Source: an uncultured Phycisphaerales bacterium
GTDB taxonomy: Bacteria; Planctomycetota; Phycisphaerae; Tepidisphaerales; Tepidisphaeraceae
Direction of reading: 5' to 3'
Length of the DNA stretch: 64,000 nucleotides
NCBI GenBank assembly: GCA_963758525.1
Contig: CAVWVQ010000003.1
Coordinates: 2,784,001-2,848,000, forward strand
The translations under genes and the position numbers were made by a program. The notes under the pieces are model-generated. The model was given only the letters and a program-made list of their open reading frames with translations, was not told the DNA's origin and ran no database searches. Positions 16,520 through 26,968 of this stretch are shown piece by piece (position 1 is the stretch's first letter; each line of letters begins with the position of its first letter).

Positions 16520-19500
16520 CTATCGAGCACCGGCGAGGTTTGCCGTCAGATGTTCCAGAACTACCCAAAGCCCAAATCCGCTGGAAGGAAGCAGAATCGC
16601 CGCGAGCCACGGGTACTGCGACAAGATCGAAAATGCTCCCCGGCGTTCCTCCTGCACCTCATTTGCCAATAGTTCAAATGTCTGCGCCAGAAGGATCACT
16701 ATCCTGTACGCAACTCAGCTTTCGCTCCTGCAGCTTTCTCAATGCCGTCTCCCGCGCCCTCTCCGCGCTCTGCGCAAAAGAATCGCGGCCAATAGCGCCA
16801 GCGCTACGTTACTTGCGAGAATGATCAGTAATCCCACCGGCCAGTCCCAGTTATCAAATAAGCTGATCCTCGAAATAATAATCAGGAAATAAATGATAAA
16901 AGGAAGGTAAATGACGTTGCCTACAACTTCGGTCCGCATTGCGATGAAGCGGATATCGAGATACTCCGCAAGCTCGGCCGGCGCGATGAGCTTCGTTTGA
17001 AGTTGGTCGTATGCACACGCGGGCCAATGAGTATCGCGTTTCAACAGAAGGTGGATGATCTTCGAGTTGAGATAACTGGCATCAACGACATAGAACGTGA
17101 AGGCAATTGATGAAAAGACGCTTAGCATGGTAATCCCCCGATCCCAGGCGGCAACGTCGTGGCCCCTGGCGGGAATTTGAGGGTCGCCGAACAGTTGAAT
17201 GAGTTGCCAGGCGGCATAGAAATAGAGCGCCGCTCCGAGAAGCACGCGAAGCAATCGAACTCGGTTGTCCGCGCACAGCCGTATTCCTTCCACACGTCCC
17301 ACGCATACACCTTCGCGGCATCGGAATGTGTGCCGAGCTCGGCCGGTGAACCGACTCGCTGACGAGCACAGTCGATTCCATAGACCTTCCACCTTTTGAA
17401 GTTCCTGTGCAGCGCCGCCAGAAAGGGCGCAGGGGATAGGCGCTTGCTGAGCCCGAACTTCTTGCAGATTTCGTCGTTGCTTTTTTTCAAATCGTAATTT
17501 GCCTTATAGATGAAGTGGAAACAGAGCATCGCTGCGAGCAACCGGAGCGCCTCCGTCGGCCAGATGCTAAGCCCCTCGATCCAGGCAAACGGCTCCTGAT
17601 AAAATTCGTATTTCACGATGAGAAAATGGACGGTGAGATAAACGACCGCCGTCGCGAAAACGAGGAAGACTGTCGTATAGCTCAGGAACCGCGGCACGTT
17701 GAGCTTCGCCGGCCGGACTCCGAAACAGACGGGTACAATAAACAACAGCGCCAGAGCAATGGATAGATTGCGAAACAAATTGCGGCGCCTTCCCCCTGGT
17801 CCCACCATGACTTTAAGTCTTGCCGCGGCGGTTGAATCTGTGATGGCCTGTCCTTCTCGCCGGAATACGGTCTAACCTCTCCTCCCTCCTCCGATTGGCT
17901 CGCGCGATCGACGCTCATATCGAACGCTTCGGTTCGCCCGATTTCATAAACCCGCGGCAGCCCGAGCTGCTGCCTCCATCCTCCTTTCTCCATTTGCGCC
18001 GGGTCCACCGCCGCGACGGTCGCCGCGAATCCAGCAGTTTGAAGCGAATCGCGAAATGGCGGAATATTCCCCTGATAATATCGATGCAACCGCAAGCCAA
18101 AGCCGGAGGCGACAAGCAGGTTGTGCGTTGTCCTCCATTCGGAAGGAAGGTTGTACCGGGCGTCCAGGTCGGTAGTGAAGTAGACGACGCCGCTGGAAAG
18201 CCGGTCGCGAACCGCGCAACACCAGCAGCTTGTCATACAGGTCAGTACCGAGGATTCCGACAGCGGCAAGATGATTCCCATCGCGCCGCAGATCGGCATC
18301 CCATTCCGCCAGTTGATCCGCCAAGCGGCGCAAATAGTCCGATTGAGCCAGCCCTTCCGGCGGCTCCGCGGCACCGCCCAATTTGAGGCTGGCTCGCTCC
18401 GTCTCTCGGGATTTTGCGGCATCAGAGGCTTTGCCGCTGTTACCGGTTCCTGCAATCTTCCCATCGATGCCGCGCAGATAAACAAATGCCCTGATCCAGC
18501 CGGAAAATTCTTTGCCTCCCCAGTCAGCGCCGCCACTCGCCGTCCTGTGGCGGCGGCAACGAAATTGAAAGAAAGTGCACGTCCGAAAACCGTATCCCAC
18601 TCCCCGATCAACGCAATATAACCGTGCGATTCTGCATCAATGGGAGGGATCTCGCCAGCTTGAGAAGCCGCGGGTTGCCCAATGCTCTCGTCGCAATACG
18701 AAAGGAACTTCCCGGCTGGAAGATCTACGTTGCGTCGGTACAATTCGGCTGCGAGTTCGTCGCAAATGTTCGAGTCGGTGAGGGTCGTCCGCACGAACCG
18801 GAATGGTTCGATGCGGTTGCCTCGAAAACCGCGGGATAGATAGGCGCTGACACTTTCGCGCGCCCTTCGCGGATTAAACGAGCACTTCTCGTCCAGAAAC
18901 AGGGCCTCATCCGAGGCGGTGGCCCACGGAGACATGATCTCGATACTGCCGCGTCGACCGAACGAATCGAACGGACCCGGACGCGACGAATCGGGATAGT
19001 CCTGAGCCTCAGCCTCCTCGACCATCGCGCGCAATGTCGTTGACACGCACGGACCGATGATCCTCACGTTTGCGTTGACCCCCCTGGGGATGACTGACTG
19101 AAGAAGCCATCCCAATCGCGTCATTGGAAAATCATAAAACACATTTTCGTTAACCCAGAGAACCAGGACCTTCTTGTACGCTGTATCGCCCTTGGTTTGT
19201 CGGGCAATTGGAACTCCGGCCATCGGCACGCCGGGCGCTTCGCACCACTCGTAAGGAATCACCAGATTTAGGATCAGATCGCCCGCCCAAGTGTGGTCGG
19301 GAAGCTGGGGGCGCGGCAACTCGGTCATGCGGGTTGAAGGCCATCCCATGGTGAAATAGCCCAGATGAACGGTATCGTCGGGTTTATACCCGCGAATTCC
19401 CAACGCCTCCAAGACCGCTACGCGGGTGCGAATTCTCCGCTCGGCTATTTCGGGGTATGCGTCCCCCTGCACCATCACGGGAAGTATCAGGGTCGACTCG

Positions 19501-19979
19501 CCCCTGACCTGTGCGGTGTCGATGATCTGATCCTGTATCTCCCGAAGCGAATGACGCGGAGGCGGAATCAGCTTGGCCAGCGGTATGCTGCCGGGCTCCC
19601 GAGGGCTTTTCGTCAAACCGTCGGCTGCTGATTGGGTCCCCATATGCGGACACGCCGATTCGGTGGAAAGCGCGTCTCCCTGGTAATGGCCAAGTTGCAC
19701 CTTGCCATTGAACAGCGATTTGCTGCCGGTGCTGATGTCGATGGATGTGGTCTCGGTCCACGACGTCGGCGGGTGGTATTCGCTGGAGACGGCCTCAAGT
19801 GGATCTTGCCAAAGCCTCGCGTCCACGTCCTCGTCACCAATTGTCTGACTATTCGTTGCGGTAAAATCGGGGCGATCCGTCGTGAGCGGATGGTAATACA
19901 GAGATGCGCTTCCCACCGCCAGAAACAGCGCCATTAACGTTGGCCACGGAATAGAGCTGGCCCCTTTTTGTTCAGCCAT
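16520..19979 (-). CDS. Large uncharacterised membrane protein (periplasmic domain plus C-terminal multi-TM region), split by several frameshifts
   Basis: Pieces 17682-19979, 17944-18600, 17122-17808 and 16739-17392 interleave into one gene. The last frame ends ...AAILLPSSGFGLWVVLEHLTANLAGAR* at 16520. Confidence 0.65.
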
Positions 19980-20100
19980 TGCGCACCCTAAGGGGTGTCT
20001 CTACCCGATCGATCTTCCGCCTGTAAAGAAATCCGTGCGCCCGCGACAATTATTTGCCATCGCCATAATTGGCGTGTCAAGCCTTATTCGCTGCTGCGGC

Positions 20101-20580
20101 TCAAATGGTGGAACCCCGCGGCTTGATCAGCCTCGGATCGAACTGATGCCGAAATTCTTTTCCAATTGGATGTTGCCAAAGTCCGGATGCAACACGTTCA
20201 GGAGGAAATTGCTCTCGCCTTGAATGATCGCACTCGGCACCTCAAGAACGGCTGACACACCCGACGCCACCCAATCCGTCCCGATCTTCTGCACGGCAGC
20301 GGGGATTGGATTGGCACGCCAGTTTCGAGGCAGGTCTGTCAAGCGAACTCCCTGACCAATCCGTCGTCAAAAGTGACCGACCGCACCGCGTAAGCGCCCA
20401 TGATCTCCGACGACTGGAGATGAACGAGCATCTCAAGCGACGCAAGCGAGACGGTTGCCGATGTGTAAACTACGGCGACGCCCTTGCTGTTGAATCTGCC
20501 GCCGTGGAGCCGCGCTCCTTCGCCCGAAAAGGCAGTGGACGAATGCTTGCGCTATAGATGCGCCAAGCAGTGATCGTCAC
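20101..20580 (-). CDS. RES-domain toxin (MbcT/ParT-like NAD+-consuming enzyme), three apparent 1-nt frameshifts (error or pseudogene)
   Basis: GTG overlaps the upstream stop (GTGA). Piecewise reading: VTITAWRIY / AFSGEGARLHGGRFNSKGVAVVYTSATVSLASLEMLVH / LPRNW...VLEVPSAIIQGESNFLLNVLHPDF / FDPRL. The R, E and S signature residues are present. Confidence 0.85.
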
Positions 20581-21338
20581 GTAAAGATTCCATGTTCGAG
20601 ACGGCCGATCAGGTCCTCAACCTCGCGTGCACCGATGTCGGTTTGAGCGAAATCGAGAGGTTTCTGCCCAGCAAGCGCGGGCTGCGGCGTCTGCAGCCAT
20701 TCGATCGCGGCCCTTCGGTCACCCTCAAAGAGCCCCACCGCCTTGTCAACGACTCTTGCGGCCCGAATCAGGCGGTCGCGATCGTCCCGCTGCAGAACTT
20801 CGATATATTCCGGCGGCACGTGCTCGGTCAGCCAGACGCCATTGGCGCTGACGAAAAAGGGGACGCCGTCGCGATGCATCTGGCCGGACGACACTTTCAG
20901 CAGGATCGGATCTCCCCGCCGTTCACCAACCTTCATTGCCGTCGGCACGTCAACGCTCAAATGCACGTGATGCCGCTTGCCCTTGATTAGTCCAGCCTTG
21001 CGGATCGAATTGAGGAATCGATCGACCGTCCCGTGATAGAGCGTCTCCGGTGGAACCGCCGGCTCGTACCCGAGTTCCACGGCAACGCTGTGTCCCTGGC
21101 TGGCGCGAATCTTCTGGCGATCCTCGCTGAACGCGAAGCGTTTCTTGTCGCAGGTGTCGACAACTTCGTTGAGCTCTGCTTCCGACACGGGAAACTTCGA
21201 TCTCCCCATCGCGTCGAGCAATTCACGGACGCTCACCCAGCCGGCTTCATCGAGCGTGATGCCAATTTCCTGCGGCTTGTGCCGGAGCACCAGGCTCAAA
21301 AACTTGCTGATTCTTGTGATTCGCTGCGTTTGCATCAT
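20577..21338 (-). CDS. kptA: RNA 2'-phosphotransferase Tpt1/KptA fused to an MbcA/ParS/Xre antitoxin C-terminal domain
   Basis: SKFLSLVLRH, DKKRF, IRASQGHS, LYHGT, RHHVHLS, NGVWLT, then in frame DRLIRAARVVDKAVGLFEGD...WLQTPQPALAGQKPLDFAQTDIGAREVEDLIGRLEHGIFT*. Likely ATG at 21338 or 21335. Confidence 0.9.
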   Translation of the reverse strand: MMQTQRITRISKFLSLVLRHKPQEIGITLDEAGWVSVRELLDAMGRSKFPVSEAELNEVVDTCDKKRFAFSEDRQKIRASQGHSVAVELGYEPAVPPETLYHGTVDRFLNSIRKAGLIKGKRHHVHLSVDVPTAMKVGERRGDPILLKVSSGQMHRDGVPFFVSANGVWLTEHVPPEYIEVLQRDDRDRLIRAARVVDKAVGLFEGDRRAAIEWLQTPQPALAGQKPLDFAQTDIGAREVEDLIGRLEHGIFT

Positions 21339-21389
21339 CGCACCATTCAACTGTCCATGTGGCCATTCCCTTGGAAATGGGGTCGACGA

Positions 21390-21461
21390 TGTAGGGCGGG
21401 ATTCATCCCGCCGTGCCTTCTGCAGAATCACCGGCTACGGCGGGATGAATCCCGCCCTACA
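21390..21461. repeat. GTAG-type REP doublet, family A (second copy), between pncA and kptA
   Basis: TGTAGGGCGGGATTCATCCCGCCGT ... ACGGCGGGATGAATCCCGCCCTACA; arms match 11634-11701, spacer differs. Confidence 0.9.
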
Positions 21462-21479
21462 GGAAGCCGGCCCGCGCGT

Positions 21480-22088
21480 TCAGATGGAATGCACCACCAG
21501 CGTCACTCCCGCCGACTTCATTTCGTCCAACGCGGCGTTCACGTCGCCCGGCTTCAACTCGACGCCCCTGCATCCGTCCGCGATCAGCCAAACCCGGAAC
21601 CCGGCCGAGACCGAGTCCAGTGCGGTAAACTTCACGCAATAGTCCGTCGCCAGGCCCATCACGTACACGTCCGACACGTTCCTCGCCTTGAGAAATTCGC
21701 CAAGTCCGGTCGACCTGCGGTGACCGTTGTCAAACAGGCCGCTGTAGCTGTCGATGCGCGAATCAGTTCCTTTGCGAAACACGCGATCGATACGGGCCAC
21801 ATTCAGATCGGCACTGAACGCCGCGCCGCGAGTGTCCTGAACGCAATGCACCGGCCAGAGCACTTGGGGAATGCCGTCGAGATCGATCACTTGTCCGATG
21901 TGCGTTCCGGGATGATTGGCCGCGAAGCTTGCGTGGTCGGGCGGATGCCAATCCTGCGTGGCGACCACCAGATCAAATCGATCCATCACTAAATTCGCAA
22001 TGGGGACGACCTCATCTCCGCCGGGAACCGCCAGAGCGCCGCCGGGGAGAAAATCATTCTGAAGATCGACAAGAATAAGTGCCTTCAT
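21480..22088 (-). CDS. pncA: Nicotinamidase/pyrazinamidase
   Basis: VDLQNDFLPGGALAV, TQDWHP, WPVHCVQ, KG....DSYS, GLATDYCVK. Confidence 0.95.
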   Translation of the reverse strand: MKALILVDLQNDFLPGGALAVPGGDEVVPIANLVMDRFDLVVATQDWHPPDHASFAANHPGTHIGQVIDLDGIPQVLWPVHCVQDTRGAAFSADLNVARIDRVFRKGTDSRIDSYSGLFDNGHRRSTGLGEFLKARNVSDVYVMGLATDYCVKFTALDSVSAGFRVWLIADGCRGVELKPGDVNAALDEMKSAGVTLVVHSI

Positions 22089-22132
22089 TCAAAGGTCTCA
22101 TATTTCGAAGCTGATCTTTTCTTGCTCGCTTT

Positions 22133-22188
22133 ATTGTGGTGCAGGCTTTCAGCCTTCTCAGATAGCAGGCTGAAGTTTGCACCACAAT
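22133..22188. repeat. REP doublet, family B (degenerate copy), between pncB and pncA
   Basis: ATTGTGGTGCAGGCTTTCAGCCT ... AGGCTGAAGTTTGCACCACAAT. Confidence 0.75.
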
Positions 22189-22196
22189 GAGATTCC

Positions 22197-23678
22197 TCAG
22201 TGTTCGTCACCCTGATGCCGGGCGGCGACCAGCATCTCATTTCGCAGACGATTGAGCGATGCCTCCAGTCCGGCGGGATATCCGTGCGGATTGAGCAAGC
22301 GCGTCACCGTCGGATGCAGCGCGTTGATCTGCTCCCTGGCCCGTTGCCGCACCGCGTGAATCGACGGAATGTCATAAACGCACTTTCCGTTCCGCATCAC
22401 TGGTACGAGAAGGTCCTCCCACTGCGCATCGGCGCCGATGGTTTTCCAACGCGTCTCGTCGTTCGGATCGACCAGTTTTGGCGCCGCGCCGATGCCCTGC
22501 GGTTCGTCGTAGATCATGTCGGCCACGAATTGGCCGCCGTTGCTGTACCGGCGCACCTGCAGAATCCCAGGGTAGGAAGCCTTGGCGCGCTGTTCCGACG
22601 CCTTGATCTTGTACTGCCAAGGCGCGTCGGCCGAATCGCGGATGGCCGAAAGCTTGTAGACCCCGCCCAGCGCCGGCTGATCGAACGCCGTCGCCAGACG
22701 TGTTCCCACGCCCCACACGGAAATCTTCGCCCCCTGCTGTTTGAGCGACTCGATCAGATACTCATCCAGATCGTTGCTGGCGACGATCGCGGCGTCGTGC
22801 AGACCGGCATCGTCGAGAATCTTGCGCGCCTCGATACTCAGATAAGCAAGGTCGCCGCTGTCGAGCCGGATACCCGCCATGCGATGCCCGGCGGCCGCAA
22901 GCCGGCGCCCAACCTCGGCGGCGTGACGCACGCCCTGGAGCGTGTCATACGTGTCCACCAGGAAAACGCAGTTGTTCGGCATGACCCTGGCGTAAGCCGC
23001 GAATGATTCCAGCTCGTGATCGAAGCTCATCACCCAGCTATGGGCGTGAGTGCCGCGCACGGGAATGCCAAACAGTTTCCCCGCCAGCACGTTGCTCGTC
23101 GCTGCGCAGCCGCCGACGTACGCCGCCCGGCAGGCGGTGAGACTTCCGTCGATTCCCTGCGATCGGCGCAGGCCAAACTCGATCACTGGATCATCGCCCG
23201 CCGCCCTGCAGATTCGCGCCGATTTGCTCGCGACCAGGGTCGCAAAGTTGATGAGATTCAGCAGCGGCGTTTCCAGAAGCTGACACTGAAGGATCGGCCC
23301 GCGCACGCGGATCAGCGGCTCGCCCGGGAACACAGCCGTTCCTTCCGGGATCGCGTCGATGTCGCAGCTCCAGCGAAGCTCGCGCAGCGCGTCGAGAAAC
23401 CCATCTTCAAACAATCCCCGCTCGTCGTTTCCCTTCAGACTGGCGAGATAATGAAGGTCATCCTCCGCGAAGCGAAACGCCTCGAGAAACTCCACGACCG
23501 ATTCCAGGCCGCAGGCGACCGTGTACCCGCCCTTGAACGGATTGCTGCGGAAGTACAGATGAAACACCGCCTCCTGCGCGGTTTTGCCGAGCTTCCAATA
23601 CCCATGCGCCATCGTAAGCTGATACAGATCGGTCAGCAGGGCCAGCGAATTTTTGCAGGTGCTGCCTAGGGCGTTCAT
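22197..23678 (-). CDS. pncB: Nicotinate phosphoribosyltransferase
   Basis: [60 protein letters not shown]. Confidence 0.95.
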
Positions 23679-23929
23679 GAAATACCCACGGCGCTGGCGG
23701 GTCTGGCTGCATCCGGCGGATGCTCGCCGGCAACGCGCAGGACCCTCCGCAAGTTAACCACGCCAACACGATTCAGTTGCAGTTTATCGACTGCGCTTTT
23801 TGGAATAATGTGCTCGACCGAGAATGGGTCGGGGGAGAAACGGGCTTGACTGACACAGTACTCGCAACAGGCGTGCGCGCGCTCGGTCAGCCATTGCCGT
23901 TGGGCTGTCGTGAGCTTTGGCTCAGGCAT
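23675..23929 (-). pseudogene. HNH endonuclease-like gene, apparently internally deleted in frame
   Basis: 84 aa: ERAHACCEYC...FSVEHIIPKS joins directly to the C-terminal LQLNR...NLRR...GEHPP. The NL...CxxCN half of the HNH core is missing. Confidence 0.7.
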
Positions 23930-24308
23930 CAGACCCGGGGCTAATTCCCAGTTGCTGCATCAGTGCATTCAGAGGAACCCGGCAAAGCCGGGCCAATTCG
24001 GCGACGTACCCCATGCGTCGAGCATTAGCTTGTTCGATCTCATTTGAAAGCTCGATCAGCGATCGATGCTCCTCGGGCGACAACGTCTCCGCGCGTCGCT
24101 TCTCCACGAGAGCGTGATATTGCTGCCAAGTCGCCGATGAAATACCAAGATTGATCTGCTGCAACAACTCGACTTCAGTGCCCGGGGGATCACCCAGCAC
24201 ACGCTTCAGTGCTTCGGCAATGTACGTGGCGGCATCGACGCCCTGTTTGGCTGCTTGATGCCGCAATCCGGCCTCGAGGACCGGATCTAATTCGATCGTT
24301 ACACTCAT
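23922..24308 (-). CDS. Antitoxin-like protein (RHH-like N-terminus) paired with the HNH gene
   Basis: MSVTIELDPVLEAGLRHQAAKQGVD...; ELLQQINLGIS...LVEKRRAETLSPEEH; overlaps the HNH start. Confidence 0.6.
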   Translation of the reverse strand: MSVTIELDPVLEAGLRHQAAKQGVDAATYIAEALKRVLGDPPGTEVELLQQINLGISSATWQQYHALVEKRRAETLSPEEHRSLIELSNEIEQANARRMGYVAELARLCRVPLNALMQQLGISPGSDA

Positions 24309-24416
24309 GCGTTGCCTGCATCATATCCTACACATCGCTGGCACACGCTTCCAGAGGGTTCATTCGTGGATTCGTGAAGCTGCGTCCCGTTTTCACTTCC
24401 CAAGGAAATCCGCCTG

Positions 24417-24653
24417 TTGCCTGCCTTGACCAGGCGGCAGGGTCCATGGGCATTACCCAATCCGTGTTGTCACGGCTCGAAGCGCAGCACGACATGTACG
24501 TCGGCACGCTTCAACGCATCGTCAAATCGCTGCGAGGCCGGCTGCAAATCATCGCCGACATGCCAAATGGCCAACGTGTCTCCGTCGGCCAGTCCCCCGA
24601 ACCGCATGCTTGCCAAACGGATTCAGGCTGCACCAAGCGGTGGCGAGCGATGA
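24417..24653 (+). pseudogene. XRE-family HTH (HigA-like antitoxin) remnant
   Basis: MGITQSVLSRLEAQHDMYVGTLQRIVKSLRGRLQIIADMP resembles the C-terminal half of XRE antitoxins. The N-terminus is missing. Confidence 0.6.
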
Positions 24654-25015
24654 ACGCGCCACCGTGTCCCTGCGACTTCAATACCCTACGGATCGCAATC
24701 CGTAGGCTTGTGCATCAAAGAGTGGGATGGGCTCAGTCGCGTTCCCATTGACGTTACCCCTCTGTTCCAGGAAAGCCAACGGATTGCCATCCGTTGGTCT
24801 CACCCGCTTCGAGAATATCGCTGAGGAGCATCAGCTCTGCCCGCCCCTGGTGTGGTACAAGGGGAGGCAGGCAATCAACCCCGGTTCTTTGGGCATGTCC
24901 CGAATTGGACAAGGACCGCGGCTCGGCCTTGTGTTCAGTTCCCGCACTCTTGATAATTTCTGCTCGCGGCGGCGGCTGCGTTTTGACTTTGTCACTTCCG
25001 GAGGAGGAAACGATC

Positions 25016-26968
25016 GTGCCATTCACATCGCGTCACGACGCGGCGGAAGACGAACTGACGCTCCTCCGCACGCTCGCCGGGCAGTTTCCCAACGTCGACT
25101 GGGCGATGGCCGAGATCGCGCGACTCTCGGCGGTTCTCACGCTCCCCAAGGGAACGATTCACGTCATCAGTGACATTCACGGCGAAGACAAAAAACTCCG
25201 CCATGTCATTAACAACGCCTCGGGCACGTTGCGCCCGTTGGTGGAACGGCTCTTTGCCGATCGGATGAGCCCGAAGGAATTTCAGGAGTTTCTCACGCTC
25301 ACGTTTTACCCGGCGGAGATTGCCGAAAGGATGGAGCAGACGGCGATGGACCCGCGCGAGCTGCGGGAATTTGCGATTCGCACCATGCGGCATCAGTTCG
25401 AGCTGGTGCGGGTTCTCTCGACGCGATACAGCCTGCGCCGCGCGATGGCGGTGTTTCCCGCCGAGTATCAGGAGCTGCTCGCCGAGATGCTGCACGAGCC
25501 GACCACGGAACGCGACAAGGAATTCATCGAGGCGGTCGTCGACGAGCTGCAGCAACGCGGGCGAGTCCTCCACCTCATTCACATCGCCGGGCGATTGGTC
25601 CGGAATCTGGCGATTTACGAACTCATCATCGGCGGCGACTGCTGGGACCGCGGCCCGCGCGGCGATCGCGTCGTCGATTACCTTCGCCAGCAGCCCAACG
25701 TCTCGTTCATCTGGGGCAATCACGACATGGCCTGGCTTGGCGCGGCGCTCGGCCACGAGGCGCTGATCTGCTGCGTCCTGCGCGTCTCGCTGCGCTATCG
25801 CCGGATCGGGCAGCTTGATGAGGGATACAGCATCCCGCTCACGCCGCTGGAGTATCTCGCCAACACCGTATACGCAGACGATCCCGCCATTCACTTCAAG
25901 CCTAAGTCATCCGGCATGCGGCCCGACGTTCTGGTCGCCCGCATGCAAAAGGCCGCGGCGATCATGCAGGCGAAGTTCGAGGGGCAGATGATCGGCCGCA
26001 ATCCCCATTGGGAGATGGACCACCGCCGTCTCCTGCACCGCATCAATCACCTTGCCGGCACGATCGAGGTGGACGGCGCTGCGTATGCGTTGCGCGACAC
26101 GCATCTGCCGACGGTCGATCCCAAAAACCCATACGAGTTGTCCTCCGAGGAGAAAACGTGCATTCGCCGGCTGCGCGACTCCTTCACCGCCAGCCAGAAG
26201 CTCGGCGAGCACATGCAGTTCATGGTCAACCGCGGCTCGATGTTCCTCCGCCGCGACCAGAATCTCATCTTTCACGGCTGCGTCCCCTGCGACGAAAAAG
26301 GGGAGTTTCTTCCGATGCATATCGACGGCCAGCCACTCGCCGGTCGCGCGATGTTCGACACGATCGAGAAAGTGGTGCTCCGCGCGATCGAGCGCCGGGC
26401 CGAGGGCGACCTCGATCTGCTCTGGTATCTCTGGAGCGGCCCGCGGTCGCCGCTGTTCGGCAAAGACCGCATCGCCACCCTCGAGCGCGATTTCATCGCC
26501 GACAAGAAGCCGCATCACGAAACGAAGGACCCATACTTCACGCTGATTCACGAGCGCTGGTTCTGCGAGAAGGTGCTGACGGAATTTGGCGTTGATCCGC
26601 AGGAAGGCCTCATCGTCAATGGCCACGTCCCGGTGAAGATCGAAGCCGGGGAGAGCCCGCTGAAGCGCAGCGGCAAGGCCATCACCATCGACGGCGCGTT
26701 TTCCGAAGCCTACGGAGACATCGGCTACACGCTCGTTCTGGAAGCCGACCGCACGCTGCTCGCCACGCATCATCACTTCGAATCCGTCGAAGCCGCTCTT
26801 CGCGACGGGGTCGACATCGTGCCCAGCGTTTCCATCATCCGCATGTGGCCCAGCCCGCGCCGCATGGCCGACACCGAGCGCGGCAAGGAATTCCGCAGCC
26901 GGATCGCGATGCTCCAACGGCTCATCGAAGCCTACAGGAACAACGATATCCGCCAGCAGAAAGCCTGA
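25016..26968 (+). CDS. fbp: Fructose-1,6-bisphosphatase class 3 (Firmicute-type metallophosphoesterase)
   Basis: GTG at 25016 after GGAGGAGG. Motifs LTLPKGTIHVISDIHGE, GDCWDRGP, WGNHD, FHGCVP, SPLFGKD, NGHVPVK..GESP, IDGAFSEAY. Confidence 0.9.
   Translation: MPFTSRHDAAEDELTLLRTLAGQFPNVDWAMAEIARLSAVLTLPKGTIHVISDIHGEDKKLRHVINNASGTLRPLVERLFADRMSPKEFQEFLTLTFYPAEIAERMEQTAMDPRELREFAIRTMRHQFELVRVLSTRYSLRRAMAVFPAEYQELLAEMLHEPTTERDKEFIEAVVDELQQRGRVLHLIHIAGRLVRNLAIYELIIGGDCWDRGPRGDRVVDYLRQQPNVSFIWGNHDMAWLGAALGHEALICCVLRVSLRYRRIGQLDEGYSIPLTPLEYLANTVYADDPAIHFKPKSSGMRPDVLVARMQKAAAIMQAKFEGQMIGRNPHWEMDHRRLLHRINHLAGTIEVDGAAYALRDTHLPTVDPKNPYELSSEEKTCIRRLRDSFTASQKLGEHMQFMVNRGSMFLRRDQNLIFHGCVPCDEKGEFLPMHIDGQPLAGRAMFDTIEKVVLRAIERRAEGDLDLLWYLWSGPRSPLFGKDRIATLERDFIADKKPHHETKDPYFTLIHERWFCEKVLTEFGVDPQEGLIVNGHVPVKIEAGESPLKRSGKAITIDGAFSEAYGDIGYTLVLEADRTLLATHHHFESVEAALRDGVDIVPSVSIIRMWPSPRRMADTERGKEFRSRIAMLQRLIEAYRNNDIRQQKA

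Follow-up and report, generated by a model that had tools for sequence, protein, structure and literature searches.

An in-frame kptA–xre join beside a frameshifted res gene in a bacterial NAD-salvage locus, most likely a strain-level deletion scar

Does a reading frame that joins an RNA 2'-phosphotransferase (Tpt1/KptA) to part of a RES-Xre antitoxin, directly before a RES toxin gene, represent a new defence or sensing system, or the accident of a deletion? The question is raised by a stretch of 64,000 nucleotides (the window) from an uncultured Phycisphaerales bacterium (assembly GCA_963758525.1, here G000). A sequence-only reading of the window had described a complete Tpt1 with all its named motifs that continues without a stop into the C-terminal domain of an antitoxin lacking its HTH, with a stop that overlaps the GTG of the RES gene, and each of these statements is borne out. 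The minus-strand ORF 21338..20577 begins ATG ATG and has no internal stop. Counted from the second ATG, residues 1–179 (20799..21338) form the Tpt1/KptA part, codon V180 (20796..20798), placed by alignments of both halves, is the junction and probable deletion scar, and the last 72 residues (20577..20795), ending in GRLEHGIFT, are the C-terminal part of a RES-Xre antitoxin (TIGR02293/DUF2384). The Pfam profiles PF01885 (residues 5–171, 168 bits against a cut-off of 26) and PF09722 (residues 202–249, 66 bits against 24.5) are both present, as are NCBIfam NF002014 on residues 1–180 (265 against a cut-off of 239) and TIGR02293 on residues 181–251. PF20432, the Xre HTH, was found neither in the ORF nor elsewhere in the 90.9% complete assembly. 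The stop of the fusion (20577–20579) overlaps the res GTG at 20580, and the antitoxin part lies directly upstream of res.

The likeness to Tpt1 stops at YIE (E179), and homologues finish a few residues past YIE(F). Likeness to the antitoxin begins at L181 (codon at 20795), the equivalent of a linker in full-length antitoxins; the fusion reads V-LQRDDRDRL where these have GRL.PDES.RL. Because the two likenesses meet there, we place the join at codon 180 (about 20796–20798), with no linker beyond one codon. The natural tail of Tpt1, about 3–10 residues, is replaced by the 72 antitoxin residues.

The fusion is real DNA and the join of the two domains is itself confirmed. A 151-nt contig from one soil-metagenome run (X2) spans the junction (20740–20890) with no other letters and no gaps, so the read check that the sequence-only reading had suggested for ~20790–20810 shows no differences, and a 2225-bp Logan contig encodes an identical fused protein. 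The three short-read runs that were used, all from one study, cover the stretch in patches, and the three breaks in res and those in the large gene downstream of it, both described below, lie outside these patches. A junction created by the assembly, with the 5' half of xre dropped, might be expected of a long-read-type assembly with many indels and 6% contamination. The HTH half is not found elsewhere in the assembly, however, no joint or loose end at the junction points to an unfused form of the strain, and the X2 bridging contig, together with the Logan protein, leaves such a chimera a negligible chance; we reject it on the evidence of the bridging contig.

The Tpt1 half is likely to be catalytically active, as judged from its residues. 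Both the R-H-R-R residues and the H-H-h motif are there: an alignment of 11 sequences shows no variation at R18, H19, R66, R121, H101-G102-T103 or H125. HVHLS is present too, and the half departs from the consensus at none of 81 columns in which at least 90% of 119 homologues agree. The catalytic R-H-R-R of Clostridium thermocellum Tpt1 consists of R18, H19, R68 and R121 (PMC8120803). The fusion matches PDB entry 7kw8 with an E value of 6e-54 and the fold of its Tpt1 half matches 6e3a and 6ede; it contains the full two-lobe enzyme of bacterial Tpt1/KptA (PF01885, NF002014; 7kw8, 6e3a, 6ede). Known members of the family end in a short natural tail, whereas the antitoxin residues stand in its place here. 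Tpt1 moves ADP-ribose from NAD+ onto phosphate ends with release of nicotinamide, and some bacterial Tpt1 genes sit in NAD/ADP-ribose operons (PMC8120803); kptA in the window does likewise. Other Tpt1 fusions met during the searches carry a Nudix domain (P0194, 343 aa) or unrelated tails, and Tpt1-like domains with long C-terminal extensions (L254 and L256) occur in other families of the phylum.

The antitoxin tail shares 76% with its closest matches, P0124 and P0125, and its best PDB matches are 8gug_B (E 1e-10), 6gw6_B (E 1e-4) and 6d0h_B, a 72-aa ParS fragment (E 0.011). Of 30 conserved columns, two differ in the tail (E to D and S to R); both lie right after the junction, and such a level is reached by 4% of 71 homologues. 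In an AlphaFold model of the fusion (pTM 0.59) the tail is predicted to be helical at low confidence, with pLDDT falling from ~80 to 40; the 11-sequence alignment behind the model has no depth over the tail. The antitoxin C-terminus plugs the toxin's active site in MbcA (PMC6436930) and ParS (PMC7758455), and the tail keeps this free conserved end, here GRLEHGIFT. The retained piece of 72 aa has the same chain size as the crystallised ParS fragment (6d0h_B), a comparison of chain size alone, which fits selection for kept neutralisation.

As in the RES-Xre family (NF049844/NF049845, TIGR02293; Pseudomonas putida Xre-RES 6gw6, ParST 6d0h, MbcTA 6fkg, NatRT), the antitoxin C-terminal domain overlaps res and the conserved end GRLEHG is present. 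The fusion differs from these systems in lacking the HTH (PF20432) and a complete xre promoter and in having its antitoxin joined to Tpt1; in addition, res is frameshifted here, unlike in the family, and tail and res fall below the whole-protein cut-offs of NF049845 and NF049844. The Xre HTH represses the xre-res operon of Pseudomonas putida (PMC12204516). In relatives, 9 loci have a parsed xre, and 7 of them carry a palindrome GCCA-N2/3-TGGC about 480–560 nt ahead of the stop of this gene. There is no exact copy of it upstream of the fusion. One 9/10 match to GCCA-N2-TGGC, which may be chance, lies at 21353–21365, just before the kptA start; noticed after the fact, it was compared with 7 xre promoters in shuffling tests, and for 4 of them p is below 0.05. 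A palindrome 3' of res was considered as an xre-type operator and dropped, since it resembles only 1 of 7 xre promoters. No sigma-70-like promoter was found in 19900–24900. At 20050–20082 on the minus strand, just past res, a palindrome with TTGACA is possibly the promoter of the downstream gene.

The res gene (20101..20580, minus strand) starts with GTG and carries PF08808 and NF049844 on both of its pieces. The sequence-only reading had spoken of a "corrected RES"; that hint of an interruption stands and can now be made specific, since the res of the assembly contains three –1 frameshifts, near 20549, at 20340–20349 and at 20164–20167 (frame-aware alignment). All three are seen against 8 homologues and the last two against the N-terminally short P0411. 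The aligned path has no stop in 153 codons; res shares 76% identity with P0411, a level of conservation equal to that of the tail, and deviates at few conserved columns. No near-identical RES of at least 124 aa was found, the best match being 76%. P0411 itself, the RES of a relative on a 6487-bp Logan contig, is 129 aa long and lacks the first ~24 residues including a conserved arginine, by a wrong start or a break.

Whether these frameshifts are real depends on how the assembly errs. Against a same-genus genome (G001), 131 conserved genes covering 159 kb contain 26 frameshifts, or 0.164 per kb, and none of the 131 has more than one that passes the filter; a tblastn count gives 21 in 179 kb. 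A coding model with a recall of 19/21 marks 798 frameshift sites genome-wide, a map that cannot rank the res tract because res is not called as coding. The genes affected include some which, from their Pfam domains, we take to be EF-G-, GlmS-, AspRS- and PNPase-like. The errors have a signature: 22 of the 26 control frameshifts lie within 6 nt of a GCGC, against 13% at random, and the remaining 4 are more than 6 nt away. The assembly holds a C5 DNA methyltransferase gene at C3:1632895, and we infer that methylation may cause the GCGC-linked errors; indels of this kind are not documented in the available part of PMC11649196. The signature sorts frameshifts in assembly G000 and should be useful for judging other "frameshifted" findings there. 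GCGC is absent at the fusion junction.

Measured by this signature, the three res breaks differ. The first has a GCGC 1 nt away and is therefore probably an assembly error. The second and third lie 46 nt and about 228 nt from the nearest GCGC, and because they are far from the error signature those near 20345 and 20165 are probably real. Two off-GCGC breaks within 0.47 kb have a Poisson P of about 7e-5, a figure that assumes independent errors, and errors may cluster beyond that assumption, because 4 of the 26 control frameshifts are off GCGC and one control gene (L140) has further low-identity frame changes that the filter dropped. The fragment between breaks 2 and 3 recurs on the 2225-bp Logan contig, whose source may share reads with the assembly and shows a separate frameshift in pncB; in a control of Logan copies, the collection contained 5 of 10 truncated products, and none had a Logan member, truncated or intact. 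On balance res is probably broken in the organism.

Were all three breaks sequencing errors, the locus would encode a working toxin–antitoxin pair in which the tail neutralises RES and Tpt1 is a passenger. Expression of the pair would come from the NAD-salvage operon and would be free of both HTH autoregulation and NrtR. The error-rich assembly and the GCGC at break 1 fit this account, as do the uniform –1 direction of the breaks, the lack of nonsense codons, the 76% identity of res and the preserved stop/GTG overlap; moreover, the C-terminus with which MbcA and ParS close the active site is still present in the tail, and NAD salvage buffers a RES toxin in Pseudomonas aeruginosa (PMC11535050). 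Against it stand the distance of breaks 2 and 3 from GCGC with the P of about 7e-5, the count of 0/131 control genes with more than one frameshift that passes the filter, the same res fragment in a second assembly, which is weak support, and the decay of the neighbouring genes. We consider the working pair unlikely. If res were intact, the locus would show in nature whether an antitoxin can do with its C-terminal 72 residues when these are attached to a foreign carrier, and it would give access to the role of bacterial Tpt1.

The fusion is a singleton in every search. A search with the whole protein scored 8000 candidates and gave 7996 hits, and among the 120 listed PF01885 and PF09722 occur together only in the query. 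The same holds for the 120 listed of 394 hits (650 candidates) to residues 120–252, a segment picked so that any fusion would outscore either half. With HMMER, none of the best 150 among 1.84 billion representatives spans both halves, in a library that can hide fusions because the window's own is missing from its best 150; the search of the 5.8-billion set covered fusions up to 443 aa. Samples of 61, 401, 141 and 401 genomes (overlapping sets) contain no second full-length match, and a query coverage of 80% is reached by 0 of 1339 matching plasmid records and 0 of 98 phage records. Xre or res accompanies kptA at none of 180 foreign kptA loci, made up of 80 from metagenomes, 80 from genomes (the best 80 of at least 599 in a genome-contig scan with the Tpt1 alignment) and 20 from the class or family, with medians of 3.2, 8.5 and 3.5 kb of DNA, respectively. 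Conversely, kptA is present at none of 14 xre loci, and a genome-contig scan with P0125 gave no match. Profiles resolved seven borderline genome loci into six plain or otherwise extended Tpt1 and one frameshifted full-length xre, and a reading of nine proteins chosen among the 150 and the 120 listed (P0289, P0297, P0369, P0325, P0349, P0262, P0268, P0290 and P0194) showed no Tpt1-Xre fusion. The titles and abstract openings that were searched contain no description of a Tpt1–antitoxin (DUF2384) fusion, and the fusion and the RES pieces match no PADLOC defence profile. The join is thus an undescribed domain combination. A recurring architecture is not what the searches show; the sequence-only reading had itself named a singleton that does not neutralise RES as contrary to its proposal, and the singleton half of this is what was found.

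That reading had also proposed that Tpt1 could act as a sensor or repair partner that gates RES. In such an evolved system, the binding of damaged RNA or DNA ends by Tpt1, or competition for NAD+, would free RES and lead to destruction of NAD+. Both enzymes use NAD+ (PMC8120803 and PMC9503650), kptA and xre-res probably occur together in at least one other lineage (the 6487-bp contig), and the 9/10 near-match upstream of kptA could be taken for an operator, although it is a single site and was noticed after the fact. Set against these points are the absence of a second fusion from the protein, genome, plasmid and phage searches, the lack of a linker beyond one codon, the probably broken res, the 180 kptA loci without xre or res and the absence of a PADLOC match. 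Nothing supports gating, and we judge an evolved system highly improbable. A newborn three-part NAD+ module that works, with the breaks as errors, Tpt1 in place of the HTH and damaged ends that could release RES, is very unlikely. If true, its setting would be an NAD-salvage operon no longer under its repressor, and a relative in which kptA, xre and res are separate genes on one contig would represent its precursor.

The surroundings of the fusion argue for decay. On the minus strand the order is putative antitoxin, HNH gene, pncB, pncA, fusion, res and a large gene. The putative antitoxin (23922–24308) has no Pfam match. The HNH-nuclease gene (23675..23929), the stop of which overlaps the start of pncB, has an in-frame internal deletion: 68 codons including the CxxCN core are missing at about 23792 in comparison with 5 of 6 homologues aligned (7 loci fetched), and PF01844 covers only its positions 1–26 of 47. 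PADLOC gives the HNH fragment weak HNH matches (E 3.6e-4 or worse). The putative antitoxin–HNH pair (23675–24308) lies directly before pncB, with a GCGC at the HNH deletion junction. The nicotinate phosphoribosyltransferase gene pncB (22197..23678; PF17767, PF04095, PF17956) is intact. So is a nicotinamidase gene of the isochorismatase family (21480..22088; PF00857), which we take to be pncA from its family and its context. Between the two, a 3' remnant of nrtR (22098..22125, minus strand) with the frame end SFEI and a stop lies 9 nt before pncA; 15 of 17 nt equal the nrtR end of the same-genus genome G002, a match that 0 of 20,000 shuffles reach. Searches of the 90.9% complete assembly gave neither PF21906 (NrtR) nor NADAR. 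The remnant lies beside a 16-nt inverted repeat (22133–22188) with short matches at other places in the genome, and the gap between pncA and kptA holds a 25-nt perfect inverted repeat (21390..21461), presumably REP-like, with several hundred short genome matches. Downstream of res, the large gene (16739..19979, minus strand) belongs to no known family and is broken by at least four frameshifts, the better-supported of which lie at least 19 nt from GCGC; it has 35% identity to a 1097-aa open frame in G034 and is matched in 1 of 60 relatives.

Related genomes show what this operon would have looked like. G002 has pncB-nrtR-NADAR-pncA-kptA, with a normal stop in kptA; nrtR is kept just before pncA in G002, G021, G303 and G421; and kptA adjoins pncA in 10 of the 20 class or family kptA loci. 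Blastopirellula marina has an NrtR-controlled operon pncB-nrtR-pncA (Rodionov et al. 2008, PMC2330246). The window shares with it the order and orientation of pncB and pncA, with the nrtR remnant between them, and relatives of the window's operon add kptA behind pncA. Unlike in the NrtR-controlled operon, nrtR is cut to its last codons here and the operon continues into the antitoxin tail and res. Through the losses of nrtR, the HNH core, the HTH and res, the assembly shows both regulators disabled along with both putative toxins; pncB, pncA and Tpt1 have stayed intact. Among the deletions of the locus the kptA junction is the one verified by reads; the HNH and nrtR junctions are assembly sequence.

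Taken together, the evidence makes it probable that kptA and xre were joined in frame by one deletion in a decaying NAD-salvage locus, leaving a Tpt1 that is likely active, a tail that is idle and a res that is likely dead. Given that the fusion is a singleton, that res is probably not intact and that deletions have also hit two genes nearby, the join is likely an accidental scar and not a new defence or sensing system; most likely it is a deletion scar at the level of the strain. The fallback of the sequence-only reading, in which two genes were fused in frame by the chance outcome of a recent deletion, thus gains support from the singleton status and the decay of the locus. The ancestor would have carried (antitoxin-HNH)-pncB-nrtR-pncA-kptA with a normal xre-res pair behind it, and a single deletion from the tail of kptA to the linker of xre would have taken the xre promoter and the DNA-binding half. 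The join was perhaps survivable, since it preserved the frame and, as long as res was alive, the C-terminus that neutralises; res may have decayed before or after the deletion. In the present strain, Tpt1 would act with NAD+ on nucleic-acid ends that carry 2'- or 5'-phosphates and release nicotinamide, which PncA and PncB could recycle without repression by NrtR. The tail would still fold and its C-terminus could plug a RES active site, with its cognate toxin probably not made. As a likely scar the fusion matters little, beyond offering a snapshot of the dismantling of a toxin–antitoxin pair and a new domain combination that arose from one deletion.

The unfused state probably survives in a relative. 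The best Tpt1 match, P0002 (183 aa, 80%), the second-best antitoxin match, P0125 (195 aa with PF20432, 76%), and the RES P0411 (129 aa, 76%) are each listed on a Logan contig of 6487 bp, so that kptA, a full-length xre and res are probably separate genes on one contig, a link that rests on equal size. The sequence-only reading had named separate kptA and full-length xre genes in related genomes as evidence against its proposal; the nearest relatives indeed have both, and probably in one case with res on the same contig. For connecting NAD salvage with RES toxins, this probable relative is a better lead than the fusion.

Two features lie on the plus strand beyond the HNH pair. The fragment at 24446–24604 has no Pfam match at E 0.01 and resembles the C-terminal half of an HTH regulator. 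At 24794–26968 a fructose-1,6-bisphosphatase of the Firmicute type (class III, PF06874) is divergent from the NAD-salvage operon. Elsewhere, the assembly contains two more RES genes (C3:1741248–1742395 and C4:155963–156921), both distant from the res of the window. Both are arranged toxin-first: the protein encoded next in line matches Xre_MbcA_ParS_C weakly in each case, and in one of them HTH_3 weakly as well.
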